Assembly: GCA_964628025.1 (NCBI GenBank)
Contig: CAZVLL010000006.1
Span: 946-64,945, forward strand
Length of the DNA stretch: 64,000 nt
Source of the DNA: an uncultured Syntrophaceae bacterium
GTDB lineage: Bacteria > Desulfobacterota > Syntrophia > Syntrophales > UBA2192
Direction of reading: 5' to 3'
The position numbers were made by a program, and so were the translations under genes. This document shows, in pieces, positions 27,348 through 43,170 of the stretch. The notes under the pieces were generated by a model. That model was not told where the DNA came from. It was given only the letters and a program-made list of their open reading frames with translations, and searched no databases. Position 1 is the stretch's first letter; each line of letters starts with the position of its first letter.

Positions 27348-29255
27348 ATGAAAAAGATCAGCCAACCCGGAACGTCATCGAAGAGTCCCCTCAGCGCAAA
27401 CGAACCAATCCTTCACAACATCATCGACGGCTCCTTCATCCCCGGCTTCGTTATTGACCGGGACCGGCGGGTAATTTGCTGGAACAAGGCCCTCGAGGAG
27501 ATCAGTCAGATCAGGGCCGATGCGGTGATCGGGACAAAGAACCACTGGAAGGCCTTTTATAAGGAGGAGCGCCCCTGCATGGCCGACCTTCTCGTCGACG
27601 GCGCCGTGGGCAAGATTCCCCAGTGGTATGCCGGAAAGTACAGGAAGTCCCCGTTAATCGAAGATGCCTTCGAGGCGACGGATTTCTTTCCTGACCTCGG
27701 GAACACCGGGCGCTGGCTGCGCTTTACCGCCTCCACCATCCGCAACGACCGGGGCGAGATCATCGGCGCCGCGGAAACCCTGGAGGACATCACGGACCAG
27801 AAGAAGGCCGAGGATGCATTGCGGGACAGCGAGGAAAAGCTTTACAACATCCTGCAAGGCTCCCCCATCGCGGCCTTCGTCATCGACCGGTCCCACCATG
27901 TGATGTTCTGGAATCGTGCCCTGGAAGAGCTCAGCCGGATCCGATCCGACGACATCGTGGGCACGGACTATCACTGGAGGGCGTTTTACGCGTCAAGGCG
28001 TCCGTGCATGGCCGATCTTATTGTAGACGGAAAACTGGACGGCGTCCGGAAGTGGTATGCGGAAAAGGGACACCCGTCCAAGCTGCTGCCGGAAGCCTTT
28101 GAGGCAACGGACTTCTTCCCCGATCTGGGCGAGGCGGGCCGCTGGCTGCGCTTTACCGCTGCGGCCATCCGGAATGCACGGGGGGAACTGGAGGGCGCCG
28201 TCGAGACCCTGGAAGACATCACGGATCAGAAGACGGCCGAGACATCGCGCAGGGACAGCGAGCAGAGGCTCGAAAGCATTCTCCAGGGGTCTCCGATCCC
28301 GATGTTCGTCATCGGACGGGATCATGAAGTGATCTTCTGGAACCGTGCCCTGGAAGGGTTGAGCCAGATCCCGGCGAAGGAGGTCGTCGGGACGAATCAG
28401 CAGTGGCGAGCCTTTTATAATGAGGAAAGGCCCTGCATGGCCGATCTGCTTCTGGACGGCAAGATCAGGGATATTCCTCAATGGTACCAGGGGAAATACA
28501 GCAAGTCGAGGCTTGTCCCGGAGGCCTATGAGGCCACGGACTATTTCCCGTCGCTGCGCGCGGGAAAGTGGATGCGCTTCACCGCCGCAACCATTCGCGA
28601 TTCCAACGGTCAGATCATCGGTGCCCTGGAAACGCTGGAAGACATCACGGAGAGGAAGCGTGGCGAGATAGCACTCCAAAAGGCATACGAAGAACTCGAA
28701 CAAAGGGTCGAGGAGCGCACCTATGATTTGCTGCAATCCTCGCAAGCCCTGAAAGCGGAGAACACCGAGAGGAAAGAGGCGGAGAAGAAACTCCGCAAGA
28801 GGGAGCGGGAGCTGAAGATCAAATCGGGCAACCTCGAGGAAATGAATACAGCCCTGAAAGTGCTTCTCGAGCAGCGCGACAAGGACAAGAGGGAAGCAGA
28901 AGAGATGGTCCTCGGAAACGTCAAGGAACTCCTGTCCCCCTACATCGAAAAGCTCAAAAAGACAAGGCTGTCGGACATGCAAACCGCTCACTTGGGGGTC
29001 ATCGAATCGAACCTGGAAAATATTATCTCCCCCTTTCTTAAAAATATTCACGGGAAGCATCTCAACATGACGCCGAAAGAAATCCGCATTGCCTCCCTGA
29101 TCAAGGAAGGAAGAACGACGAAGGAAATCGCTGCGCTGCTCGGCATGTCTTCGCCAGCCGTCGAGTTTCATCGAAACAATATCCGGAATAAACTCGGTCT
29201 GAAAAACAAGAAAGCCAACCTGGCTGCTCACCTTGCCTCCCTATTGGAAGGCTGA
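27348..29255 (+). CDS. transcriptional regulator: three tandem PAS modules + coiled coil + LuxR-type HTH
   Basis: Three 143-aa repeats, a Glu/Lys-rich coiled coil, and C-terminal LTPKEIRIASLIKEGRTTKEIAALLGMSSPAVEFHRNNIRNKLG (LuxR/GerE HTH). Confidence 0.85.
   Translation: MKKISQPGTSSKSPLSANEPILHNIIDGSFIPGFVIDRDRRVICWNKALEEISQIRADAVIGTKNHWKAFYKEERPCMADLLVDGAVGKIPQWYAGKYRKSPLIEDAFEATDFFPDLGNTGRWLRFTASTIRNDRGEIIGAAETLEDITDQKKAEDALRDSEEKLYNILQGSPIAAFVIDRSHHVMFWNRALEELSRIRSDDIVGTDYHWRAFYASRRPCMADLIVDGKLDGVRKWYAEKGHPSKLLPEAFEATDFFPDLGEAGRWLRFTAAAIRNARGELEGAVETLEDITDQKTAETSRRDSEQRLESILQGSPIPMFVIGRDHEVIFWNRALEGLSQIPAKEVVGTNQQWRAFYNEERPCMADLLLDGKIRDIPQWYQGKYSKSRLVPEAYEATDYFPSLRAGKWMRFTAATIRDSNGQIIGALETLEDITERKRGEIALQKAYEELEQRVEERTYDLLQSSQALKAENTERKEAEKKLRKRERELKIKSGNLEEMNTALKVLLEQRDKDKREAEEMVLGNVKELLSPYIEKLKKTRLSDMQTAHLGVIESNLENIISPFLKNIHGKHLNMTPKEIRIASLIKEGRTTKEIAALLGMSSPAVEFHRNNIRNKLGLKNKKANLAAHLASLLEG
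27411..28658 (+). repeat. three in-frame tandem coding repeats, period 429 nt (143 aa), encoding the PAS modules
   Basis: Repeat starts at 27411, 27840 and 28269. Invariant blocks are FWNRALEE/G, W(K/R)AFY, ERPCMADL, EA(F/Y)EATD(F/Y)FP, W(L/M)RFTA and ETLEDIT. Confidence 0.85.
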
Positions 29256-29263
29256 TCCAACGG

Positions 29264-29296
29264 GGCCTCCGGATTTGTGTCGGAGGCCTTTTTTTC
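29264..29296 (+). terminator. intrinsic terminator
   Basis: GGCCTCCG - 9-nt loop - CGGAGGCC followed by TTTTTTT, located 9 nt after the stop of the LuxR regulator gene. Confidence 0.8.
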
Positions 29297-29537
29297 TCAT
29301 GATCCCCGCAGAGTCCCGCCACATGTGGATTTCCGTTCCTCTTTTTTCAGCCCGACTCTCTTGTGCAGTCTTCATGCGCGGGCAAGTGTGCTGCACATGG
29401 TACTAGGATAACCCTATTGATAACCTATTGTTCTATTCATATTGATTAACGGAAGATGTCCCCGTATATTTTCTACAAAGAATGTCAGTTGCCGTGGGTA
29501 AGGTGAACAGCCAGGACAGGAAAGGAGGGAGGACACC

Positions 29538-30389
29538 ATGCAGGCCGTAGCGACGAAATTGATTGACGTCACGGAAAAGAATGCGGAGACAATTGCCAGG
29601 CAATGGTATGCCGATGTCCGGAAAAACCCGAAAACACCATCCTACAGCAGTATTTCCGAAGACAATGCCGTTCCGATGGCCGTTGACTTCTACCGAAAGT
29701 TCCGTGCGGTGTTCAGCGCCAAAAATCCATTTGAGGAGGCAAGACGGGTATACGCGAAGTATGCCGATGAGTGCTACGAAAAGGGAATTCCACTTCATGA
29801 AGCAATCTACGCACTGACGCTCATGCGACGACATATCTGGCTTTACGCCGAATTTCAAACGCTCTTCGTGACCGCCGTCGAGCAGCAGCAGGCCATCGAG
29901 AGCCTGAGCCGGACGATTCTACTTTTCGATTACGCCACCTATGTCATCACGGAAAGATACCAGGAGTTGATGAAGGGTGAGATCCAGAAGCAACTGGCAG
30001 CCCTCCGCGCTTTTGGTATGGAGGAAAGCCTGACGGGAAGCAAAGTGGGTGTCATGGCCTGCCTTCTCGTCGCCTGCGGGTTCTTGACCTATTACTACCA
30101 TGTTGTCATGGCCAGCGGGGTGATTTTCACGCACCTGTTTTACATCCCCATCGTGCTGGCCGGAATCTGGTGGAAGAAAAAAGGAATTTACGTAGCCGTG
30201 ATCCTGGCGGGGATCCTGATCGTAAGCCATCTGCTCTTCATGCAGACGGTCCCGCTGACAGACGACATGATTCGGGCGGTCATGTTCATCGTCGTTTCCT
30301 CCGTGGTGGCCATGCTGGCAGAGGGATTGACGAAAATTGAGGTTCTTTACAGGACAGGCCCGCCGGCTTCCCGTTCCGTCGAAGCATGA
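29538..30389 (+). CDS. RsbR-N-terminal-like (globin-fold sensor-like) domain fused to a 4-TM membrane domain
   Basis: The N-terminal 150 aa (ATKLIDVTEKNAETIARQWYADV...LMRRHIWLYAEF...LLFDYATYVITERYQEL) resembles the RsbRD_N-type domain. The C-terminal half is hydrophobic. RBS GGAAAGGAGGGAGG. Confidence 0.5.
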   Translation: MQAVATKLIDVTEKNAETIARQWYADVRKNPKTPSYSSISEDNAVPMAVDFYRKFRAVFSAKNPFEEARRVYAKYADECYEKGIPLHEAIYALTLMRRHIWLYAEFQTLFVTAVEQQQAIESLSRTILLFDYATYVITERYQELMKGEIQKQLAALRAFGMEESLTGSKVGVMACLLVACGFLTYYYHVVMASGVIFTHLFYIPIVLAGIWWKKKGIYVAVILAGILIVSHLLFMQTVPLTDDMIRAVMFIVVSSVVAMLAEGLTKIEVLYRTGPPASRSVEA

Positions 30390-30531
30390 AGACAAGGCGG
30401 CGATAACAGCAGGCGGTTTTGTGAGTCAAATGGATGCAAACACGATCCACAACAAACGATCAACGATTACGAACAGCCGGAGAAAAAGAGTTAGATCCGG
30501 TTAGGATGACCGCTGATCCAGGAGGTAGACC

Positions 30532-31053
30532 ATGCAAGGCCATGCGACAAAACTGATCGAGTTGACAGAAAATAATGCGGACAAAATTGCCCACCAGTGG
30601 TTGAAGGACGTGAGGGTAAACCCGAGGACGCCCACCTATCACAACTTCTCCGATGAAAAGGCTCTCGCTCATGCCGTCCAGTTCTACCGTCATTTCCGGG
30701 CGCTTTTCTGCACCGACAAACCCTTCGATGCGGCCAGCAAGTTCTTTACGAAATACGCCGATGAGCGCTTCTCCGAGGGCATTCCCCTCCACGAGTCGAT
30801 CTACGCCCTCATCCTGATGCGTCGCCACATCTGGCTCTATGCCGAGTTCCAGGCCATGTTCATCACGGCCGTCGAGCAGCATCAGGCCACCGAGAGCCTC
30901 ACGCGCACGATCCTCATGTTCGACTACGCCATCTACGTCCTCACGCAGCGTTACGAGGAGTTGATGGATCGGGAGACGGAGGAGCGACTGCGGGTCGGCA
31001 CAAAGTCCGGCACGTTCCGGCACAAGGTCATCTTCGGCGGTCAGTCGAAGTGA
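30532..31053 (+). CDS. soluble RsbR-N-terminal-like domain protein (paralogue of 29538..30389), immediately upstream of atpD
   Basis: About 65-70% aa identity by eye to the N-terminal domain of the preceding gene. RBS CAGGAGG. Ends 54 nt before atpD. Confidence 0.5.
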   Translation: MQGHATKLIELTENNADKIAHQWLKDVRVNPRTPTYHNFSDEKALAHAVQFYRHFRALFCTDKPFDAASKFFTKYADERFSEGIPLHESIYALILMRRHIWLYAEFQAMFITAVEQHQATESLTRTILMFDYAIYVLTQRYEELMDRETEERLRVGTKSGTFRHKVIFGGQSK

Positions 31054-31062
31054 TCGGGGTAG

Positions 31063-32852
<1,790 letters not shown>

Positions 32853-32860
<8 letters not shown>

Positions 32861-33182
32861 CGAACACCTGACCCCGAGCGAGAGACGCGAAAAAATTGCC
32901 GAGGAGTTCACCCGGAAGGTTGGCACGAAAGAGGCGAGGCGTGTCAAGGGCAAAACGCAGAAGGACGAAACCATCTGGTTCGGCCTCGGGATGTTCGGAA
33001 TTGTGGGCTGGTCTGTGGTGATCCCGTCGCTTCTCTTCACGGCCCTCGGTCTCTGGATTGACCGGTCATGGCCGAGCCGATTTTCCTGGACGCTCATGCT
33101 GCTCATCATGGGGGTTGCCGTGGGGTGCATGAATGCGTGGTACTGGGTGAAGCGCGCCCGGCAGGATATCATGAGGGACTGA
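32853..33182 (+). CDS. atpQ: N-ATPase accessory membrane subunit AtpQ (AtpZ/AtpI-like)
   Basis: Two TM helices (WFGLGMFGIVGWSVVIPSLL..., WTLMLLIMGVAVGCMNAWYWV). Canonical third position in N-ATPase operons. Confidence 0.75.
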
Positions 33183-33185
33183 AAT

Positions 33186-33251
33186 GAGGGGTGGAGGGTT
33201 GAGGGCAGAGGGTCAAGGGGCGAGGGTACAGGGTACAGAAGGGATAAGGGA
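33186..33251 (+). promoter_or_regulatory. intra-operon G-rich tract: nine AGGG(G) units between atpQ and atpR (G-quadruplex-type / multi-SD-like sequence)
   Basis: GAGGGGTGGAGGGTTGAGGGCAGAGGGTCAAGGGGCGAGGGTACAGGGTACAGAAGGGATAAGGGA on the sense strand. It fills the only sizeable intergenic gap of the operon. Confidence 0.5.
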
Positions 33252-33256
33252 TAACG

Positions 33257-33565
33257 ATGATTCTTGAGCTCATCACATCGTTTTTCGTCGGGACCGGGAT
33301 CGGGTGGATTTATTTTGCCGGGCTGTGGGAGACGGTGCGGAGGATTCCCGACGATCCGAAGCCTTTTCGGAGGATAGCCCTGAGCTATATCCTCCGGATG
33401 GGGGTGGCCCTGACCGGCTTTTATCTCGTCACGGACGGACAGTGGGAACGGCTCGCCGCAGCCATGCTGGGATTTGTCGCCATGCGGGGAATGATGCTTC
33501 GCAGGCTGGGACGGACATCGGTCCGGTTTGCCGAAGGAGAATCCTATGGAAGTCGTAGCCATTGA
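33257..33565 (+). CDS. atpR: N-ATPase accessory membrane subunit AtpR
   Basis: 102 aa with three hydrophobic segments and conserved Arg residues (WETVRRI, YILRMG). Fourth position, as in N-ATPase operons. Confidence 0.75.
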   Translation: MILELITSFFVGTGIGWIYFAGLWETVRRIPDDPKPFRRIALSYILRMGVALTGFYLVTDGQWERLAAAMLGFVAMRGMMLRRLGRTSVRFAEGESYGSRSH

Positions 33566-34277
33566 CCAGATCAGCCCTGACCAGGTCATCCTGTTCACCT
33601 GGGGACTCGTCACGATCAACGCGACCCTGGTGTACACGTGGATGATCATGGGAATGCTCGTTCTCGGTTCCATCGCGATCACCGGCAACCTTTCTTCGGA
33701 GCGAACGATGTCCCGCTGGCAGAACATGCTGGAGGTCATCATCGGCACGATCCGCTCTGAGATCCGCGATATCGCCAGGGAGGGAGCCGATACGTACTTT
33801 CCCTTCATCGCGACGCTCTTTCTTTTTATTCTCTTTTCCAACCTCTTCACCTTCATCCCGGGATACGTGGCGCCCACGTCGTCTCTTACGACAACGTCGG
33901 CCCTCGCCGTCCTGGTCTTCTTCGCCGTTCCGATGTACGGGATCTCCAAGAACGGAATCGTCGAGTATCTGAAGGAATATTTCCGGCCCACCTTCATTTT
34001 CTTTCCATTTCACATCATGGGGGAGTTTTCGAGGACCCTGGCCCTGGCCGTCCGGCTATTCGGGAATCTCATGAGCCACGAAAAGGTCATCGCCATCCTG
34101 CTTGCCGTGACTCCCCTGTTTTTCCCGGTGGTGATGCAGGTGCTGGGACTCATGATCGGCATCATCCAGGCGTACATCTTCGCCATCCTGGCCATGGTGT
34201 ATATCGCCTCGGCCACCCAGACCCACGAGGAGACGGATCACAAGATAAAAAAGGAAACGGGACCCGTTCAACACTGA
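33546..34277 (+). CDS. atpB: N-type F1Fo ATPase, Fo subunit a
   Basis: RBS GAAGGAGA 5 nt upstream of ATG 33546. Conserved stator Arg context LALAVRLFGNLMSHE and C-terminal IQAYIFAILAMVY. Confidence 0.9.
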   Translation: MEVVAIDQISPDQVILFTWGLVTINATLVYTWMIMGMLVLGSIAITGNLSSERTMSRWQNMLEVIIGTIRSEIRDIAREGADTYFPFIATLFLFILFSNLFTFIPGYVAPTSSLTTTSALAVLVFFAVPMYGISKNGIVEYLKEYFRPTFIFFPFHIMGEFSRTLALAVRLFGNLMSHEKVIAILLAVTPLFFPVVMQVLGLMIGIIQAYIFAILAMVYIASATQTHEETDHKIKKETGPVQH

Positions 34278-34298
34278 AAGAAGGACAGGAGGATCGGT

Positions 34299-34577
34299 AT
34301 GGACAGCGTGAGCATTGTTGCAATGGCGTCGATTATTACAGCGGGGATTTGCATGGGAATCGGAGCGATCGGACCCGGCCTCGGACAGGGCAGGGCCGTT
34401 CAGGGTGCGCTCAACGCGATTGCGCAGCAGCCCGACGAGCGGAACTCGTTGACGCGAACCCTCTTCGTGGGTCTGGCCATGATCGAGTCCATCGCGATTT
34501 ACTGCTTCGTGATTTCGATGATCCTGGTCTTTGCAAATCCGTTCTGGGCCTATGTCGTTCGCAAAGCAGGAGGGTAA
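34299..34577 (+). CDS. atpE: N-type F1Fo ATPase, Fo subunit c
   Basis: Hairpin protein with GPGLGQG in helix 1, loop QQPDER, and carboxylate motif LAMIESIAIY in helix 2. Confidence 0.92.
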   Translation: MDSVSIVAMASIITAGICMGIGAIGPGLGQGRAVQGALNAIAQQPDERNSLTRTLFVGLAMIESIAIYCFVISMILVFANPFWAYVVRKAGG

Positions 34578-34580
34578 TCC

Positions 34581-35351
34581 ATGCACATCGACTGGTTTGT
34601 ATTCCTCTGCCAGATCGTGAACCTGTTGCTGCTGCTCTTCCTGCTGAAGAAGTTCCTCTACGGGCGGATCATCGGGGCCATGGACGCACGGGAGGCCCGG
34701 ATCTCAGCTACCTTCGAGCAGGCCGAGAAGGCCCGCGAGGAGGCACGGGCGGCCCTGGAGCGCCAGGAGAGGAGGCTTGCGGACTTCGAGTCGGAGCACG
34801 AGGCCATGATGAACAAGGCCCGCGAGGATGCCGAGGTCCACCGCAGGGAACTGATGGAAAGCGCGCGGGAGCAGATCGAACAGGTACAGGCCCGGTGGAT
34901 CGAGACGATACGGTCGGAGCGGGATACCTTTCTCCACGAGCTGCGCCGGCTTGCCGGGAACCAGATTTACTCCATTACGAGGCAGGTCCTGAAGGATCTG
35001 GCCGGACTGGAGCTGGAAACGCGTATCGTGGAGATCCTGATGAATCGGATCGAGACCCTGAACGAGGAGGAGCGCGGAAAATTCAGGACGGCAGTTCCCG
35101 AAGGGGGATCCATTATCGTCCAGAGCGCCTTCGACATTCCGGAGGATGAGCAGCGCAGGCTTGATGAGGCGATCCATCGCTGCATCGCCGGCGGGACTCC
35201 GGTGGTCTTCGAACGATCCGAGAACATCATGATGGGCTACGAACTCAAGACGGACGGCCACAAGATCTCCTGGAGCATCAAAGACTACATGGATTCCCTG
35301 GAAGAGAAATTCTACCACGCCCTCTATGAGGAGGCCCGGGAGAAACGATGA
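34581..35351 (+). CDS. atpF: N-type F1Fo ATPase, Fo subunit b (long form, 256 aa)
   Basis: Single N-terminal TM helix followed by a long charged helix. It is about 100 aa longer than canonical b, and there is no separate delta gene in the operon. Confidence 0.85.
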   Translation: MHIDWFVFLCQIVNLLLLLFLLKKFLYGRIIGAMDAREARISATFEQAEKAREEARAALERQERRLADFESEHEAMMNKAREDAEVHRRELMESAREQIEQVQARWIETIRSERDTFLHELRRLAGNQIYSITRQVLKDLAGLELETRIVEILMNRIETLNEEERGKFRTAVPEGGSIIVQSAFDIPEDEQRRLDEAIHRCIAGGTPVVFERSENIMMGYELKTDGHKISWSIKDYMDSLEEKFYHALYEEAREKR

Positions 35352-35371
35352 GCTCGCAAAAGGGGTAGAAC

Positions 35372-36928
35372 ATGAGCATGCCGAGAGAAAAGGAAGAACT
35401 GACGGAATTCCTCGACGATACGTTCAAGACCCTGGATCAGGTCCTGGCGGACCAGCATCCGGAACTCAAGCAGCGGGAAGTGGGCATTGTGAACTATGTG
35501 GGACACGGCATTGTCCGGGTGCAGGGGTTGCCCAACATCAAGTCCGAGGAGGTTGTGCTCTTTCCCCAAAACGTGCAAGGACTCGTCTTCAATATCGACC
35601 CCGATGAGATCGGGATCATCCTGCTTGGGCCGAGCGAGCAGATCGTTTCGGGCTCCGAAGTGAAGCGGACCGACCGCGTCCTCGACGTGCCCGTCGGAGA
35701 GGCCCTGATCGGGCGGGTTGTCGATGCCATCGGAAGACCGCTGGACAACCAGGGGGAAATCCGATCCTCCCGTCGGCTTCCCGTCGAGCGGGAAGCGCCC
35801 GCCGTCATGGCGCGCGACCCCGTCACGGCGCCTCTCCAGACCGGGATCAAGGTCATCGACGCCCTGATCCCCATCGGTCGCGGACAACGGGAACTCATCG
35901 TCGGGGACCGACAGACCGGGAAAACGGCGATTGCCATGGACACCATCATCAACCAGTGGGACAAGAACGTCCTCTGCATCTACTGCGCCGTCGGCAAGAA
36001 GTCCTCCGATGTCGCCAAAGTCATCGCGGATCTGAAACAGCACGACGCCATGAAGTATACCGTTGTCGTCGCCGCCACGGGGGAGGACCCACCGGGGCTG
36101 CAGTTCATCGCCCCCTACGCGGCAACCTCCATGGGGGAGTACTTCATGTCGCGGGGGCGAGACGTGCTCATCGTGTACGATGATTTGACCTATCATGCCC
36201 GGGCCTACCGGGAACTTTCGCTTTTGCTGAGACGGCCGCCGGGCCGGGAGGCCTTCCCGGGGGACATCTTCTACATTCACTCAAGGCTGCTCGAGCGTTC
36301 CACCCATCTGCGCAAGGAACATGGCGGAGGATCGCTCACGTCACTTCCCATCGTCGAGACGGAGGCCCAGGACATCTCGGCCTACATCCCGACGAATCTC
36401 ATTTCGATCACCGACGGTCAGATCTACCTCTCGCCGCGCCTCTTCCAGAAGGGCATCCTTCCACCCGTCGATGTGGGCAAATCGGTTTCCCGCGTGGGCG
36501 GCAAATGCCAGCTTCCGGCGTACCGGGCCGTCGCCGGCGATCTCCGGATCTCCTACTCCCAGTTCGAAGAGCTGGAGACCTTCTCCCGTTTCGGGACGCG
36601 ACTCGACGAGGCGACCCGGAGGGTGCTGGAGCGCGGCTGGCGCGTCCGGGAAATCCTGAAACAGCCCCAGTACAAACCCATCCGCGTGGCAGAGCAGATC
36701 GCAGCGCTTCTGGCGATCACGGGCGGGGCGCTGGATACTGTTTCCATTCCCCGGATCGGAGAGGCGGAAGCGGCCCTGAGAAATCAGGCCGTCGTGCAGT
36801 GCAAAGACCTGTGCGAGCGCATCGAATCGGGAGAAAAGCTCACGCTGGACGACCGCGACACCTTGCTGAAAATGTCCCGTTCCGCCACGGAAACCATGAA
36901 AGAAGAGGAGAAACATGCAGACCATTGA
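35372..36928 (+). CDS. atpA: N-type F1Fo ATPase, alpha subunit
   Basis: Walker [53 protein letters not shown]. Confidence 0.93.
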
Positions 36929-37820
36929 GTCTCTGAAACGCAGGATTCAGAGTGCCCAGGATCTCCTCGGGGTGGTGAAGACCATGAAGGCGCTAGCGGC
37001 CGTAAGCATCCGTCAGTACCAGAGGGCCGTCGAGTCGCTCTCGGACTACAACCGCACGGTGGAGATGGGACTGCAGGTCGTTCTGAAACGAAGCCGGGGT
37101 AGCTTTGCTCCCCTGAGGGAGTCTTCGGCGAAACGGATGGGCGCCATCGTCTTCGGGACAGACCAGGGCCTCTGCGGCCAGTTTAACAATATCGTCGCAA
37201 GCCATGCCCTGGACGAAATGAAAGCCCTTGGCATTCCGAAGGAAAACCGGATTGTCCTTGCCGTGGGGGTCCGGGTCGCCGACATCCTCGAAGATTCAGG
37301 GCAGAAGGTCCTGGAAGTCCTGAGTACGCCCGGATCGACGGCAGGCATCACGTCCGTGGTGCAGGACATCACCATGCTTCTCGAGGACTGGCGTTTCAAG
37401 CGACAGATCGAAAACATGGCCCTTTACTACAATGAGTACATTTCCGGGGCGAACTACCGGGCGAAAACGCTCAAGCTTCTGCCCGTTGACCGGGAATGGC
37501 TCAAGAACCTGGAAAAACGGAAGTGGGAATCGAGGACGATTCCCATGTACACGATGAACTGGGAGACCATCTTCCGCTCCCTCATCCGGGAGTATCTTTT
37601 CGTGTCGCTCTACCGGGCCTTCGCCGATTCGCTGGCGAGCGAGAATGCAAGCCGACTGGCGGCCATGCAGAGCGCCGAGAAGAACATCGAGGAGAGGCTG
37701 GAGGAGCTTTTCGGCCAGTTCCACCGCCAGCGGCAGAGTACCATTACGGAAGAACTCCTCGACATCGTGAGCGGCTTCGAGGCACTGGGCGGCACCGGGC
37801 AGGCCGGTGCAGTTGGATAA
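36915..37820 (+). CDS. atpG: N-type F1Fo ATPase, gamma subunit
   Basis: N-terminal [28 protein letters not shown] and C-terminal [15 protein letters not shown] helices are typical of gamma. Overlaps the atpA stop. Confidence 0.88.
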
Positions 37821-37874
37821 AGGATAATAATACAGGAAGAGACGCCTCTGGCGAGACGAAGGAGGTGAAGGATC

Positions 37875-38708
37875 ATGCATCTGGACAGAAAAGTATGTTC
37901 CATCTGTGCGTGGCGGGAGCACTGCCAGAAAAGATTCCAAGTCGCGACAGACGCGCTGTGCAACGTGAATTGCCCGGACTATACGCGGGACGTGCAGATC
38001 CGGGACAGCGAAGTCGAGTCGAGGATCGTCCAGGAGCAGCTCGACAAATGGCAGCGGGAAAAGAAGCCGATTCACGAATACAGCATCACAATATCGAGAC
38101 AGGCCGGGGCAGGCGGAAGCGAAATTGCCCGTATCCTTGCCCGGAAAACGAACATGGACCTCATGGCAGGTCAGATCATCCAGGGGGTGGCCGAGAGCTC
38201 CAAGATGAGCACGAAGGTCGTCGAGACGCTCGACGAGAAGGCCGTCACGACCATGGAGAGCTGGGTCAACTCGCTGTTCGTTTCCCGTCATCTCTGGCCC
38301 AGCGATTATCTGAAGCATCTCACGAGGGTGATCGGCACGATCGGCAAGCACGGCAACGCCATCATTGTGGGCCGCGGGGCCGGCTACATTCTTCCGCCGG
38401 AGACAACATTCCGCGTGAAGGTCATCGCTCCGCTGGAGTACCGGATCGAGAGCATGATGCGGATCCGGAACCTATCCAGGACCGACGCGCAGACATACAT
38501 CGAACATCGGGATGCCGATCGGGTCGCTTTCGTCCGCAAGTACTTCCGTGCGGACTCGATGGATCCAATTCACTTCGACATCGTGATCAATACGGAAAAG
38601 GTCGGGATCGACGACGCCGCGGATGCCATCCTCGTGGCCTTCCGGGGCTGGACCAAGCTGTTTGATGCGAAAAACAACAACGCCCAGAAGACGGCGAAGG
38701 CCGTTTGA
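37875..38708 (+). CDS. cytidylate-kinase-like (Cytidylate_kin2-type) protein with N-terminal Cys-rich motif, copy 1
   Basis: RBS GAAGGAGGTGAAGGA. N-terminal CSIC-x5-C-x11-C-x3-C, P-loop-like ITISRQAGAGGSEIA lacking the Walker Lys, and central GNAIIVGRGAGYIL. Confidence 0.6.
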   Translation: MHLDRKVCSICAWREHCQKRFQVATDALCNVNCPDYTRDVQIRDSEVESRIVQEQLDKWQREKKPIHEYSITISRQAGAGGSEIARILARKTNMDLMAGQIIQGVAESSKMSTKVVETLDEKAVTTMESWVNSLFVSRHLWPSDYLKHLTRVIGTIGKHGNAIIVGRGAGYILPPETTFRVKVIAPLEYRIESMMRIRNLSRTDAQTYIEHRDADRVAFVRKYFRADSMDPIHFDIVINTEKVGIDDAADAILVAFRGWTKLFDAKNNNAQKTAKAV

Positions 38709-38811
38709 GCGTTGAAAAAACGTCGCACTTTTTCTTCTTTACTGATGCATCGAATCCGGATATTATACGGCCAACTCATTCAGTTCGATGCAAACGAGGA
38801 GGTGTCAATAG

Positions 38812-39651
38812 ATGTCGACGGAACGGAGAGTCTGTGCCATTTGTATCTCCCTCGAAGACTGCCTGAAGCGCTTCGACGTTAAGACGGATGATGATTACAA
38901 CGTCATCTGTTCCGATTATGCGCGGGACCCGAAGGTCAAAGACAGCGAAGTGGAGGCGATGATCGTCCAGGCTGTTCTGGAGAAGTGGCAGCGGGACGGA
39001 ATTTCCCAGAATGAATTCGTCATCACCATCTCCAGGCAGGCCGGTGCCGGAGGCAGCGAGATCGCGCGCGTCCTGTCCCAGAAGACGAAGATGGACCTCA
39101 TGGCGGGGCAGATCATCCAGCGTGTCGCTGAAAGCAGCAAGGCGAGCGCAAAAGTCATCGAGACCCTCGACGAGAAATCCGTCAGCGCCATGGAAAGCTG
39201 GGTCAAATCCATTTTTTCATCGAGTCGTCCCTCGGCGAGTGAATACCTGGGGCACCTCAGCCGCGTCATCGCAACGATCGGCAAGCACGGCAACGCCATC
39301 ATCGTGGGCCGGGGCGCGAATTACATCCTTCCGCCCGAAACGACGTTCCGGGTGAAGATCATCGCCCCGCTGGAGTATCGCATCGAAAGCATGATGCGAA
39401 TCCGAAGCCTGCCCCGGGAAGAAGCGAAGAAATACATCGAGAAGCGCGATGCCGACCGGATTGCCTTCGTGAGAACCTACTTCGAGACGGACTGGCTGGA
39501 AGTCAACCCGCTGAGCTTCGACCTGGTCATCAATACGGAAAAGGTAGGTATCGACGGGGCCGTCGATGCAATCCTCGTCAGCTTCCAGGAATGGAGGAAA
39601 GTATACGAAGCAAGAAAACAGCTGGAGCCCTGGAAATCAGAGGTTCACTGA
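38812..39651 (+). CDS. cytidylate-kinase-like protein with N-terminal Cys-rich motif, copy 2 (tandem paralogue)
   Basis: About 70% aa identity by eye to copy 1. Same CxxC-x5-C...C N-terminus and identical ITISRQAGAGGSEIAR block. RBS GAGGAGG. Confidence 0.6.
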   Translation: MSTERRVCAICISLEDCLKRFDVKTDDDYNVICSDYARDPKVKDSEVEAMIVQAVLEKWQRDGISQNEFVITISRQAGAGGSEIARVLSQKTKMDLMAGQIIQRVAESSKASAKVIETLDEKSVSAMESWVKSIFSSSRPSASEYLGHLSRVIATIGKHGNAIIVGRGANYILPPETTFRVKIIAPLEYRIESMMRIRSLPREEAKKYIEKRDADRIAFVRTYFETDWLEVNPLSFDLVINTEKVGIDGAVDAILVSFQEWRKVYEARKQLEPWKSEVH

Positions 39652-39694
39652 GCGCAGGCCGTAAACGCCCGTCATCACAATCCTCGGGATTCCG

Positions 39695-39727
39695 AAATCC
39701 CGGCACCATCGTGCCGGGATTTTTTTA
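39695..39727. terminator. bidirectional intrinsic terminator between convergent genes
   Basis: AAATCCCGGCAC - CATC - GTGCCGGGATTT flanked by an A-run and a T-run. The T-run overlaps the stop of the minus-strand hdrB-like gene. Confidence 0.8.
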
Positions 39728-40597
39728 TGCGAGTCCCCTGCTGCGGAGTAGGGGAAGGGAACTGACCAGCAGTTTATTCAGACCGGTCTGCCTGGGGGGA
39801 AACCCATAGGCAAGACCCATCAGTTGTGTAAAATAGAGTACCGGCAGGTCGTAGAGAATGCCCTGCGCTTTTTCGATGGCCTTCTGCCGGGAGTCCAGGT
39901 TGACCTGGCACATCGGGCAGGCAACCACGATCGCGTCGGCGCCGGCCCCGCGGGCGGACTTCAGCACCTGCCCGCCCAGGTCGATGACGATGTCCGTCTG
40001 GGATGCGGCAAAAGCCCCCCCGCAGCACTCGGCCTTGTGGGACCATGGGACCGTATCGGCACCCAGCGCATGCAGGAGGCTATCCATGGAGGTCGGCTGC
40101 TCGGGATCGTCGAAGCAGACAATGGCACGGGGCCTTGTGAGGAGGCAACCGTAGTAAGCGGCGAGTTTCAATCCTTTCAGGGGTCTTAAGACTGGTTCGG
40201 CGAGCCGCTGCAAGCCCGTCCATTCCACAAGGGCCTGCATGAGGTGAGACACGACAGGGAGGTTCGAGAGCGGCGCCTCGACGACCATTTCCATCCTCTC
40301 CCGCACTTCCGTCGAATGTTTCAATGCATGGGCGACGCCCTTCATGCGATTGAAACAGCCTGCACAGGGGGTGGTTACCCGGTCGAGGTTCATGCGGTTG
40401 ACGGAGGCGAGATTGCGTGCGCTCAAGCCCAGGGTCAGCTCGCGGTCGAGGCTGTGGGCCGCCGTAGCACCGCAGCAGTTCCAGTCCTCGACCTCCAGCA
40501 GGCGGATTCCGAGACGCCTGCAGACGAGCTCCGCGGAACGACCGTATTCTCGGGCGATGCCATGGAGGGAGCATCCGGGGTAGTAGGCGATGTCCAT
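39725..40597 (-). CDS. hdrB: HdrB-like protein with two CCG domains (distal copy)
   Basis: YYPGCSLHG...EDWNCCGA and AAYYGCLLTRP...AECCGGAF are two CCG-domain signatures. I prefer ATG 40597 (MDIAYYPGC). Confidence 0.8.
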   Translation of the reverse strand: MDIAYYPGCSLHGIAREYGRSAELVCRRLGIRLLEVEDWNCCGATAAHSLDRELTLGLSARNLASVNRMNLDRVTTPCAGCFNRMKGVAHALKHSTEVRERMEMVVEAPLSNLPVVSHLMQALVEWTGLQRLAEPVLRPLKGLKLAAYYGCLLTRPRAIVCFDDPEQPTSMDSLLHALGADTVPWSHKAECCGGAFAASQTDIVIDLGGQVLKSARGAGADAIVVACPMCQVNLDSRQKAIEKAQGILYDLPVLYFTQLMGLAYGFPPRQTGLNKLLVSSLPLLRSRGLA

Positions 40598-40602
40598 CCC
40601 GT

Positions 40603-41184
40603 TCAATCCTTCTTGTGAATCCATTCACCATGGAAAAGGCGTCTTACCGTTTCCAGGCCTTTGACCCCTGACGAAAAGGGGTTCAGTTTTCCCTTGAGGA
40701 ACATCTTCAGGCCGAGTTCGGCGTCGTTTGTGTACCGGCCCGTTGCCGCGTTGAACCGGATCATGAGGCCCATCTCCGAGATGCGCCCTCTTTCTCGGAT
40801 CTGCTCGAGCATGAGGTTGTGAAAGAGCCCAACGGCGGGACGGGTGGCCGGGATTCCCTTCCGATGGGCCTTCTCCCGGAGATGGTCCAGGATCTGCGGG
40901 ATATCGATGCCCGAAGGGCAGCGGTCGAGGCAAAGATGGCAGGAAAGGCAGATCCAGAGTGCGTCCATTTTCATCAGGGTCTCTTCCGCACCCAGCTTCA
41001 CGAGCTGAACGATTTTCCGCGGGGTGTAGTCGAAGACATGTCCGTTGGAACAGCCCCCGGAGCACTTCCCGCACTCGAGGCAGGTATCGAGGTCGATGCC
41101 GAAGAGATCCTTCAGCTCCCTTTTCAGGGCACTGTCGGTCTTTTCAAGCCGTATCGGTGTGTAGAAATCCGGGTTCATGCTCAT
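40603..41184 (-). CDS. hdrC: HdrC-like 2x[4Fe-4S] ferredoxin-domain protein (distal copy)
   Basis: CLECGKCSGGC and CLSCHLCLDRCP cluster motifs. Size 193 aa. Confidence 0.8.
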   Translation of the reverse strand: MSMNPDFYTPIRLEKTDSALKRELKDLFGIDLDTCLECGKCSGGCSNGHVFDYTPRKIVQLVKLGAEETLMKMDALWICLSCHLCLDRCPSGIDIPQILDHLREKAHRKGIPATRPAVGLFHNLMLEQIRERGRISEMGLMIRFNAATGRYTNDAELGLKMFLKGKLNPFSSGVKGLETVRRLFHGEWIHKKD

Positions 41185-41187
41185 CCT

Positions 41188-42222
41188 TCAGGGACTCTGG
41201 CTGAACAGCGCAATGACGCCTGCGGCCGCCGCCGCGCCCTCGTTCCGCGCACCGGCCGTTTCAACGGCAAAGCCGCATCCGCCGGCGAAGAAGACCCGTT
41301 CCGCGCACCGGACCGGCTCAAAGGGATCCTGTTCGATAAAGCCGTACTCGTCGGTGCGGCAGCCGAAGAGTCCGGCGAGAATACCCGTCTCACGGCGCGG
41401 CACAAGGGCCGAGGCCAGGACCACCACGTCGACGGCCACCTCGATCGGGATCCCCATCAGGGTGTCTTCGGCCCTGACGATCAGCCTGCCGTCTTCGGGC
41501 AGGACCTTGGCCGGTCGCCCCCGGACATAACGAACGTGCTTTTCCTCGATGACGTGCCGGACAAACTCCTCGTAGTGCCTGCCGGAAGCCCGGTAGTCCA
41601 TGTAGAAAACATAAACCCCGGCATCGGGGAAAAGGTCCTTGATGAGTCCCGCCTGCTTGGCCGTGTACATACAGCAGATCTTCGAGCAGTAAGGGTTTCC
41701 CTTCGATCGATCGCGGGACCCGACGCACTGGATGAAGGCCACACTGCCGGGCTTGTCCCCGACTCCGAGCGCCCATTGTTTCAGACGTTTTTCAAATTCC
41801 AGGGAATTCACAACGCCGGGATAGATCCCGTGGCCGTATTCCCCGTAGACCGAGGCATCCATCAGTTCAAAACCGGTGGCCACGATGACGGCCTCGACGT
41901 CCAGCTCGCTTTCGCTGCCGTCGTGCAGGCTTTTCAGCGAGACACGGAAACCCCTTTCCTGTCGCAGGCTCGATGTGACAACGGTCTGCGTTCGGATCGA
42001 AGCCTGTTGCGACCGGACGAGGAGGGACTTTCGCTGCTCGATCAGCTCCCCGGGATTTTCCCATTTCGGGAAACTGCTGTGCAGGTCCCGCAGTGTGCCC
42101 CCGAGTTCGGGCTCTTTTTCTACCAGCACGACGCCAAACCCGGCCTGCGCGACCCGCAGCGCGGCTTCCATTCCTGCCGGGCCCCCTCCGATCACGAGGG
42201 CTGTTTTCTTTGTTTCCTGCAT
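41188..42222 (-). CDS. hdrA: short HdrA-like flavoprotein (344 aa, no ferredoxin domains)
   Basis: FAD fold ALVIGGGPAGMEAAL...EKEPELGGT. HdrA-type Cys cluster motif CVGSRDRSKGNPYCSKICCMY. Confidence 0.8.
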   Translation of the reverse strand: MQETKKTALVIGGGPAGMEAALRVAQAGFGVVLVEKEPELGGTLRDLHSSFPKWENPGELIEQRKSLLVRSQQASIRTQTVVTSSLRQERGFRVSLKSLHDGSESELDVEAVIVATGFELMDASVYGEYGHGIYPGVVNSLEFEKRLKQWALGVGDKPGSVAFIQCVGSRDRSKGNPYCSKICCMYTAKQAGLIKDLFPDAGVYVFYMDYRASGRHYEEFVRHVIEEKHVRYVRGRPAKVLPEDGRLIVRAEDTLMGIPIEVAVDVVVLASALVPRRETGILAGLFGCRTDEYGFIEQDPFEPVRCAERVFFAGGCGFAVETAGARNEGAAAAAGVIALFSQSP

Positions 42223-42237
42223 GGAGCAGATTCCTTT

Positions 42238-43170
42238 CTAGAGGCCCAGCTTTTTCAGAACTCCGGCCAGTGAAACCGTGTTGGCCTCGAATCCCAGCTT
42301 TTCCAGCGGCACACCGATGGCAAGGGCGATGAGCTGGGAAAGGTCAATCACGGGGATACTGAAATTCCCGCCGTACCGCTTGGCGAGATGGGGCTGTTCG
42401 CGGTCGAGCGCCACATTGCATCCCGGGCATACGGTCGTGATCAGTTCGACCCCTCCCTCCCGGGCGCTGGAGAGCTTTTTGAAGAGATGGGGCTGGACCG
42501 TTTCCTCTTTGTGGGTAAAACCCCGTCCCACCGAGTAGCCGCAGCACAACTGACGTTCTTGGTAAAATACCGGCGTGCCTCCTAGGATCTCCACGATTTC
42601 CTCATGAAACGTGGGGTAGCCGCCGTCGTCGAAGATCCCGTATTGCTTGGCCAGGTAGTGACAGCCATAGTGCACACCCACCTTCAGCCCGGCAAGGGGT
42701 CGCACCACCTTTTTGCCGATCTGTTCCCGCAGGCGGTACCACATTTCCTGGACGTGGTAGATTTGCGTTTTGCCCTCATACCGGTGTCCCCAGCGCGCAA
42801 CCAGGTCGTTGGCCATTTTCAGGTAGTCCGGGTTGTGCATCATGATGTGGGACAATTCGCTGAGGTATCCGTAGCACCCGTTGCAGAAGGTGTAGGTGTC
42901 CAGATCCTTCTTTTCGATGATGGAGAGGTTTCGGGCCGTGATGGCCAGAGAGACCTCCGGCTTGTGGGCCGAGCAGGTGAGAAGATATCCGGAGCAGCAG
43001 GTCTGGTCGGGATCCATCAGGGCGCGTATGCCGAGGCTCCCGAGGGTTTCCTTCACGGCGTTTTCCGTTCCGGGATATTCGAGACTGCCGGTGCAGCTCC
43101 GGAAAAGGAAAACGGCGTCGGGGATCGTGGGGATTTTCTCCTCCGGGCGGATGACCCGCTGCTTACGCAC
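42238..43170 (-). CDS. hdrB: HdrB-like protein with two CCG domains (proximal copy)
   Basis: FRSCTGSLEY...DQTCCSG and GVHYGCHYLAK...RQLCCGYS. Confidence 0.8.
   Translation of the reverse strand: MRKQRVIRPEEKIPTIPDAVFLFRSCTGSLEYPGTENAVKETLGSLGIRALMDPDQTCCSGYLLTCSAHKPEVSLAITARNLSIIEKKDLDTYTFCNGCYGYLSELSHIMMHNPDYLKMANDLVARWGHRYEGKTQIYHVQEMWYRLREQIGKKVVRPLAGLKVGVHYGCHYLAKQYGIFDDGGYPTFHEEIVEILGGTPVFYQERQLCCGYSVGRGFTHKEETVQPHLFKKLSSAREGGVELITTVCPGCNVALDREQPHLAKRYGGNFSIPVIDLSQLIALAIGVPLEKLGFEANTVSLAGVLKKLGL

Follow-up and report, generated by a model that had tools for sequence, protein, structure and literature searches.

The published operon of the N-type ATPase (N-ATPase) has nine genes, and the main text of the paper that describes it contains no kinase-like gene, while reporting gene insertions in some cyanobacterial N-ATPase operons (Dibrova et al. 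2010, PMC2881411). According to the same work, Syntrophus aciditrophicus has an N-ATPase operon, the ion specificity of the Syntrophus enzyme is left open, and the long b subunit of N-ATPases already holds a delta-like part (PMC2881411). Here we analyse a 64,000-nucleotide stretch of DNA from an uncultured Syntrophaceae bacterium (contig CAZVLL010000006.1 of assembly GCA_964628025.1, positions 946 to 64,945 of the forward strand; hereafter the window). Compared with the operon of Dibrova et al., the window has the canonical nine genes, a tenth and, in its own lineage, an eleventh. The two additional genes, which we name ckl1 and ckl2, encode cytidylate-kinase-like proteins with a cysteine-bearing N-terminus; we use ckl for the family as a whole. 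In every Syntrophales locus examined, the N-ATPase operon has ckl as its tenth gene, conserved and under selection.

Several known systems can be set beside ckl. The PF13189 entries 3HDT (Clostridium symbiosum) and 3FDI (Eubacterium ventriosum), two uncharacterised proteins solved by structural genomics, share with it a Lys-less R-E/Q-x-G-S/A-G-G loop. Unlike these two proteins and its nearest relatives without cysteines, ckl has an extra N-terminal module with four cysteines (Cys4) and a linker, and it occupies a fixed position after the atpG of an N-ATPase operon. Bacterial and archaeal cytidylate kinase (Cmk, EC 2.7.4.25) has in common with ckl the nucleoside monophosphate (NMP) kinase fold, the Arg of GRD and a C-terminal RDxDR, but in ckl the Walker Lys is replaced by Gly, the Ser/Thr by Glu and DGRD by VGRG. 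On the side of function, rotary ATPases are known to be controlled by small regulators such as the C-terminal domain of epsilon, Paracoccus zeta, IF1 and cyanobacterial AtpTheta, some of which bind ATP, and by the dithiol switch of chloroplast gamma. The logic we propose for ckl, that of a soluble factor or redox switch tuning ATP hydrolysis, would resemble theirs by analogy of function only, as there is no relationship in sequence or fold.

The sequence-only reading, an earlier annotation made from the letters of the window, had called the link between such genes and an N-ATPase undescribed, and we likewise found no account of it in the searchable literature: a 2014 paper on F0F1 evolution has no kinase-like gene in its main text, and papers on the physiology of Syntrophus and Smithella are silent on ckl.

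A scan with one genome per GTDB species yielded 80 loci, all from metagenome-assembled genomes, which are labelled mostly as Syntrophales lineages (Syntrophaceae, Smithella, Syntrophus) or as unclassified Deltaproteobacteria; a few loci at the weak end belong to Desulfobacterales or Desulfobacteraceae. Their neighbourhoods were checked by tblastn with the nine atp proteins of the window. Wherever the upstream DNA could be read, the Cys-bearing ckl lies directly after an N-type atpG and on the same strand (57 of 57 genome loci), and wherever the contig extends far enough the whole atpDCQRBEFAG set stands upstream of it. An independent scan with a degenerate DNA pattern added 11 Cys-bearing ckl genes from metagenomes, and all 11 also follow atpG. 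The conserved co-location and co-orientation with atp genes that characterise an accessory gene are hence found without exception in both samples, and the co-occurrence with atpDCQRBEFAG on which the earlier proposal depended holds. The spacer between atpG and ckl in the 57 loci has a median length of 41 nt, with a range of 0-176 nt, and contains a run of five T in only three of them. Identity to the window correlates between ckl and atpG (r = 0.87), as expected if the two genes are inherited together.

Relatives of the kinase-like domain without the Cys module behave differently. About 20 of the 80 loci contain PF13189 proteins that start at residue ~50 and lack the module, and none of these lies directly downstream of atpG; one, L069, is found ~5 kb upstream of an atpD. 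In four Syntrophales loci (L059, L062, L064 and L066) inspected by eye, one of the nearest such relatives follows a phenylacetate-CoA-ligase-like (PaaK-like) gene on the same strand; this gene lies ~3 kb upstream of the match, and all but one of the loci have an ACT-domain-like gene between them. This setting could reflect the ancestral surroundings of the kinase-like domain. Relatives of this kind in Desulfobacterales are preceded by other genes. As a separate observation on the neighbourhood of ckl, two Syntrophaceae genomes carry a second, F-type-like set of atp genes, convergent and a few kb downstream of ckl (L008 14498-18373 and L009 6814-10690). Compared with the N-type enzyme, its beta and alpha subunits show 50-53% identity, and two rotary ATPase loci are therefore neighbours there.

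Outside Syntrophales, none of the three N-ATPase operons inspected carries ckl. The operon on Picosynechococcus pAQ7 ends at atpG and is followed by a convergent diguanylate cyclase gene, the operon on a Croceicoccus plasmid has no ckl within the extent of the record, and a distant metagenomic operon, whose AtpR is 46% identical, has no PF13189 gene after atpG. Thus, ckl is apparently no general requirement of N-ATPases. The distant operon (L209 5191-13839, also L210, L211 and L212) has additions of its own: the gene for a 204-residue EF-hand protein ends where atpD begins, and a 384-residue protein of baeRF_family3 (eRF1-like) is inserted between atpA and atpG. N-ATPase operons recruit differing lineage-specific cytoplasmic extras, ckl here and EF-hand and baeRF proteins elsewhere.

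The larger part of both proteins belongs to PF13189 (Cytidylate_kin2), as had been supposed. The family model is matched with 136.5 and 140 bits at a cut-off of 28 (E ~1e-40), from position 1 or 2 to 176 of its 176 positions. An AlphaFold model of the full protein, built from 24 sequences, has an NMP-kinase fold over residues ~62-276, with a predicted local distance difference test (pLDDT) score of 70-90 over most of it. The best fold matches are 3HDT (E 1.8e-10) and 3FDI, with TM-scores of 0.86-0.87 normalised to the target, and CMP, shikimate, adenylate and dephospho-CoA kinases come next. A profile search against PDB sequences likewise retrieves 3HDT and 3FDI, at E 9e-20 and 1e-18.

The absence of the Walker lysine, noticed from the start, is confirmed by alignment to E. 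coli Cmk. The Cmk sequence was entered by hand and the alignment has an E-value of 0.007; its register agrees with that of the PDB match 1CKE over residues 5-74. In this alignment ITISRQAGAGGSE is paired with ITIDGPSGAGKGT, so that G81 takes the place of the Walker Lys and E83 that of the Thr, with R75 at the first Gly. DGRD becomes VGRG, keeping the Arg and losing both Asp, and the C-terminal RDxDR is retained. Neither ckl protein has the Walker A GxxGxGK[ST] together with DGRD that marks a Cmk. TIGR02173, the model for true Cmk, has a cut-off of 102.1 bits, and the two proteins reach 42.5 and 37.2. A true (d)CMP kinase is ruled out by this score, the absent Walker Lys and the absent pair of Asp.

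What does not hold is the description of the loop as degenerate. The loops of 3HDT (REYGSGGR) and 3FDI (REFGSGGH) are equally Lys-less, PF13189 relatives without the Cys module have SREPGSGGSE where ckl has SRQAGAGGSE, and the ckl loop is invariant among the homologues described below. Judged from these alignments, the Lys-less P-loop is a signature of the PF13189 family and the site is remodelled, not decayed. Since its residues are invariant, the loop is taken to be functional. It probably forms a conserved phosphate- or nucleotide-binding site and, because the catalytic residues are missing, a non-catalytic binder or sensor appears likelier than a kinase.

The N-terminal cysteines had been read as a conserved motif of the kinase-like protein. 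Their conservation stands, and the correction is that they belong to a separate module, which has homologues that stand alone or are joined to other domains. When a profile of residues 1-48 of ckl was searched against 1.84 billion cluster representatives, 202 proteins were recovered at E <= 1e-3, 39 of them at E <= 1e-10. Most of the 202 are complete stand-alone proteins of 47-75 residues with the signature C-x2-C-A-W-R-x2-C-x-K-[KR]-[FY] ... C-P-[DE]-[FY]-x-[RK]-D, and when ckl is aligned with stand-alone forms the Cys are invariant and A, W, R and K nearly so. The module has no matching Pfam or NCBIfam model, and stand-alone forms, where named, are called 'hypothetical proteins'. Their genomic contexts were surveyed in 66 metagenomic loci, 47 of which have sufficient downstream DNA. 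In 18 of these 47, the most frequent context, an argS gene comes directly after the Cys4 gene, either overlapping it or separated by a short gap; beyond argS follow a SPOR-domain gene, ffh and rpsP (loci L089-L168, for example L148 3560-7862).

The module is also fused to PF03266 (NTPase_1, THEP1-like), a P-loop domain unrelated to PF13189, in proteins whose cluster mates are labelled Nitrospirota by NCBI. One such fusion, P0310 with 223 residues, ends a TrkH-TrkA-unknown-fusion array with 0-nt gaps (L213 1853-5672, also L214 and L215), in which the unknown is a 240-residue protein without a Pfam match; a second fusion, P0199, has no Trk context. NCBI annotates shorter versions of the fusion, of 177 and 185 residues, that omit the Cys module. 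These arrangements suggest a module that works with nucleotide-binding domains, in the Trk array too beside a cation transporter. By homology, the Cys region is an independent module, and ckl was evidently built by fusing such a Cys4 mini-protein to a PF13189 domain.

As in Fe-S and Zn metalloproteins, four cysteines are invariant, and they probably form a [4Fe-4S]- or Zn-binding site, with Zn equally possible. C-x2-C-x5-C is the [4Fe-4S] spacing in WhiB-like proteins, AddB, Cas4, RecB-family nucleases and the EndoIII/MutY loop. Similar to these sites, ckl has the CxxC-x5-C spacing, a distant fourth Cys followed by Pro and an anaerobic host; unlike them, it has the fourth Cys downstream and not upstream.

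Both copies in the window are under purifying selection. Between ckl1 and its orthologues dN is 0.11-0.14 and dS 0.8-1.05, giving a ratio of nonsynonymous to synonymous divergence (dN/dS) of 0.11-0.15; for ckl2 the values are 0.093, 0.646 and 0.14. The Cys module and the kinase-like part are equally constrained. These ratios show that neither gene is a chance open reading frame or a pseudogene. In an alignment of 24 homologues with 52-84% identity, ~60 positions are invariant. They include C8, C11, C17, K19, R20, C33, D35 and D39 in the Cys module, so the conservation of the Cys motif among orthologues is borne out, and T72, S74, R75, G78, G80, G81, E83 and R86 in the loop. Further invariant residues are D120-E121-K122, H159-G160-N161, V165-G166-R167-G168, R180, R190, R216, D235, N239 and T240.

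The coordinates of the locus are given in Table 1. The two reading frames after atpG, of 277 and 279 residues, are where they were first drawn, and both proteins indeed contain C8, C11, C17 and C33 and the identical segment ITISRQAGAGGSEIAR (residues 71-86); the Cys codons of the ckl1 module span 37896-37973. Close paralogy is also upheld, with the figure of ~70% identity estimated by eye replaced by 66% over 270 residues (BLASTP, E 4e-133). The window contains no further ckl copy and no stand-alone Cys4 gene elsewhere.

Table 1. Features of the N-ATPase operon and the ckl genes in the window
Feature	Position	Strand	Description
atpD	31108-32484	+	Pfam
atpC	32474-32860	+	Pfam
atpQ	32853-33182	+	Pfam PF09527
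atpR	33257-33565	+	Pfam PF12966
atpB	33528-34277	+	Pfam
atpE (c subunit)	34299-34577	+	Pfam
atpF	34581-35351	+	Pfam
atpA	35372-36928	+	Pfam
atpG	36915-37820	+	Pfam
atpG-ckl1 spacer	37821-37874	+	54 nt, ribosome-binding site GAAGGAGGUGAAGG, no terminator
ckl1	37875-38708	+	277 residues: Cys4 module, linker helix and PF13189 NMP-kinase-like domain
ckl1 Cys4 module	37875-38000	+	residues 1-42; C8-x2-C11-A-W-R-x2-C17-x-K-R-F ... C33-P-D-Y-T-R-D
ckl1 remodelled P-loop ITISRQAGAGGSEIAR	38085-38132	+	residues 71-86; G81 at the Walker-Lys position, E83 at the Ser/Thr position
ckl1 PF13189 domain	38085-38600	+	residues 71-242
ckl1-ckl2 spacer	38709-38811	+	103 nt, AT-rich, GAGGAGG ribosome-binding site
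ckl2	38812-39651	+	279 residues, lineage-specific tandem paralogue; P-loop 39022-39069
intrinsic terminator	39696-39728	+	AAUCCCGGCAC-CAUC-GUGCCGGGAUU followed by U7; closes the unit after ckl2

The N-ATPase operon upstream of both genes is complete (31108-37820, + strand). Pfam matches run in the order beta, epsilon, AtpQ, AtpR, a, c, b, alpha and gamma, and a Pfam scan finds no gene for a delta subunit (atpH) in it. The operon thereby shows all that defines an N-ATPase, namely atpR and atpQ, the order atpDCQRBEFAG and the lack of atpH. A role of ckl as stand-in for the missing delta subunit can be rejected, since the N-ATPases inspected in other phyla do without ckl and a delta-like part is already present in the long b subunit. 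The c subunit carries the motif GPGLGQGRAV...LAMIESIAIYCF, also written GQG ... IESIAIY; inspection by eye shows four residues of the Na+-ligand set in place (Gln, Glu, Ser and Tyr), but an Ile at the Thr position.

Features around the genes are consistent with a single unit, and co-transcription of ckl with the atp genes appears likely on this basis. The gap of 54 nt and the strong ribosome-binding sites reported earlier are confirmed, with atpG ending at 37820 and AGGAGG-type sites preceding both starts. No terminator-like site is predicted on the + strand of the atpG-ckl1 spacer, whose sole fold is a weak local hairpin without a U tract. None of the findings that the sequence-only reading had listed as refuting it turned up in the analysis. 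The fold of the ckl1-ckl2 spacer is not significant (z = -1.3). An Rfam scan of 29000-41000 returned nothing credible, with one sub-threshold match to MicL; no riboswitch or leader accounts for the spacers. After ckl2, a GC-rich stem of 11-13 bp (~39696-39721) is followed by seven U, with a minimum free energy of -31.2 kcal/mol (z = -2.8) that none of 200 shuffled sequences equalled. The terminator had been described as bidirectional. It is convincing on the + strand; action on the - strand is less certain, because the tail there is short (UUU only).

The terminator adjoins the end of a CCG-domain gene that runs towards it on the - strand (39725-40624) and touches its stop codon. This gene is one of two paralogues in a - strand cluster (39725-43170) that runs convergently into the terminator. 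On the near-identical contig L085, the CCG genes are accompanied by genes for 4Fe-4S ferredoxin domains and for an oxidoreductase of flavin adenine dinucleotide/pyridine-nucleotide type, a make-up like that of HdrD or TfrB. A CCG gene is found at the same position in L013 and L081 as well.

The tandem pair that the sequence-only reading described is not what is conserved, since each of the 80 species-representative loci has a single ckl copy. Only close relatives of the window have orthologues of ckl2 (P0056-P0061). In an exact look-up in an index of contigs, ckl2 (P0056) and AtpR (P0269) are recorded and ckl1 is not. Over ckl2, contig L085 does not differ from the window, and in L081 and L082 the ckl2 orthologue again follows ckl1, with a spacer longer than the 103 nt of the window. 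In these two loci a 77-residue open reading frame without a Pfam match, absent from the window, lies between the genes (L081 5560-5793, L082 3008-3241). A neighbour-joining tree places the ckl2 clade as sister to the clade of the window's ckl1 and its nearest orthologues, and ckl1 is the copy orthologous to the single post-atpG gene of other Syntrophales. Tree and distribution together confine the duplication to a small group around the window, in which either the second copy would have been lost in some members or ckl2 would have evolved at an accelerated rate. In the Cys module of ckl2 (38833-38910) the four Cys, K19 and R20 are kept, and I-S-L replaces A12-W13-R14, a segment that is >= 90% conserved across the wider Cys4 family. 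This divergence suggests subfunctionalisation and a diverged role.

How can these observations be interpreted? We lean, with some reserve, towards ckl being a lineage-specific, non-catalytic, nucleotide-binding and metal- or redox-sensitive accessory or regulator of the N-ATPase. The protein would be made from the mRNA that also encodes the pump subunits and act in the cytoplasm as a non-catalytic nucleotide-binding accessory, the state of which would be set by the metal/redox module. In this way it could tune how active the ATP-hydrolysing N-ATPase is, or perhaps how it is assembled, to the energy and redox status of the cell; where both copies exist, in the lineage of the window, ckl1 might pair with the diverged ckl2 in a heteromer. 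We prefer a regulator because the Cys-bearing form is strictly specific to the position after atpG, because the make-up of the protein is sensor-like, because the same module was independently fused to another nucleotide-binding domain beside a cation transporter, and because another N-ATPase operon recruited a different protein of sensor type, the EF-hand protein. That ckl binds a metal, that it binds nucleotides without acting on them as an enzyme and that it contacts the ATPase at all are predictions from sequence. A more far-reaching version would make ckl a new regulatory subunit that gates the N-type (probably Na+) ATPase by Fe-S/redox state and adenylate level in obligate syntrophs at the thermodynamic limit of life. 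Cys4 would then define a widespread and previously unrecognised family of small metal-binding proteins, which would assist or switch nucleotide-binding domains of P-loop type, examples being ckl, the THEP1-like NTPases in the Trk K+ operon and possibly ArgRS. We regard this version as speculative and, taken as a whole, rather doubtful.

Several points weigh against a regulator of this kind. The converse comparison is thin: three operons outside the clade were inspected, and an AtpR protein search with 40 matches, nearly all close relatives, is too shallow for a census of operons without ckl. Ahead of ckl2, the ckl1-ckl2 spacer contains a promoter-like site (TTTACT-17-TATTAT, 38738-38766). The argS setting of the stand-alone Cys4 proteins is uninformative on ion pumps. 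AlphaFold gives the Cys region low confidence, with a pLDDT below 50 for residues 1-49 of the full-length model and of 62 for the isolated module (92 sequences). Finally, we found no PF13189 member with a described function in the searchable literature, the term non-catalytic being derived from residues, and the conserved R75 could in principle stand in for the lysine.

Among other explanations, ckl might be a chaperone that assembles or matures the N-type F1 or its stalk, its fold holding the alpha and beta subunits. Assembly proteins of this sort exist for other rotary ATPases (Atp11/Atp12 and AtpI), with AtpI as the established case of an accessory gene of an atp operon that acts in assembly. 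Synteny and co-divergence speak for such a factor as much as for a regulator, and the unusual stalk of N-ATPases, with its long b subunit and no delta, might call for one. We nevertheless think it unlikely, as the inspected N-ATPase operons of other phyla lack ckl and a redox/metal module with a strictly conserved ligand loop fits sensing better than scaffolding. It is somewhat less probable that ckl is an enzyme unrelated to the pump, an active phosphotransferase or hydrolase that would use R75 in place of the lysine on a small-metabolite substrate and share the operon for transcriptional convenience. The invariant loop with its conserved Arg and the retained NMP-site residues (the Arg of GRG, RDxDR) would suit an enzyme, and PF13189 is a large family in many contexts whose members without the Cys module stand beside metabolic-looking genes. 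Opposed to this, the Cys-bearing form was met nowhere but after atpG wherever the upstream DNA was readable (57 genome and 11 metagenome loci), despite saturated synonymous divergence, and the loss of the Walker Lys and of both Asp of DGRD goes along with a score far under the true-Cmk cut-off.

A nucleic-acid-binding regulator, in which Cys4 would be a zinc knuckle with the basic residues K19, R20 and R14, so that ckl controls the atp operon and the stand-alone form argS, strikes us as improbable. Invariant basic residues do adjoin the cysteines, stand-alone homologues lie directly upstream of argS, and the sole signal to recur in the model scans is a weak resemblance to RecB-like nucleases in their Cys region (TIGR03491, E 0.005-0.3). 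These matches, however, are far below the cut-off, no known DNA- or RNA-binding domain was detected in Pfam- and NCBIfam-type scans, ckl sits at the 3' end of the operon, and the fusions of the module are to nucleotide-binding domains and not to effector or helix-turn-helix domains. The unrelated enzyme and the nucleic-acid regulator are both less likely than an accessory or regulator of the pump. That the genes are decaying duplicates or chance reading frames without function might be suspected from the P-loop without its canonical lysine and from the presence of two copies. The probability of this is negligible: dN/dS is 0.11-0.15 in both copies, ~60 positions are invariant and the Lys-less loop is a family signature, so that selection and conservation refute decay, which is excluded.

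Some parts of this picture were already known, namely the type of operon and PF13189, a known but uncharacterised family. New are the fixed association of a tenth gene with the Syntrophales operon, the Cys4-PF13189 architecture and the recognition of the Cys4 mini-protein family. To our knowledge, the physiological role and the control of N-ATPases are largely unexplored. Syntrophales live on very small energy margins, and uncontrolled hydrolysis of ATP by a second rotary pump would be costly in their cells. With its Cys/metal module, its predicted non-catalytic nucleotide-binding fold and its co-inheritance with the pump, ckl is a concrete candidate for the control of the N-ATPase, and it may offer a first way into the function of PF13189 and of the unannotated Cys4 mini-proteins, both of them orphan families.

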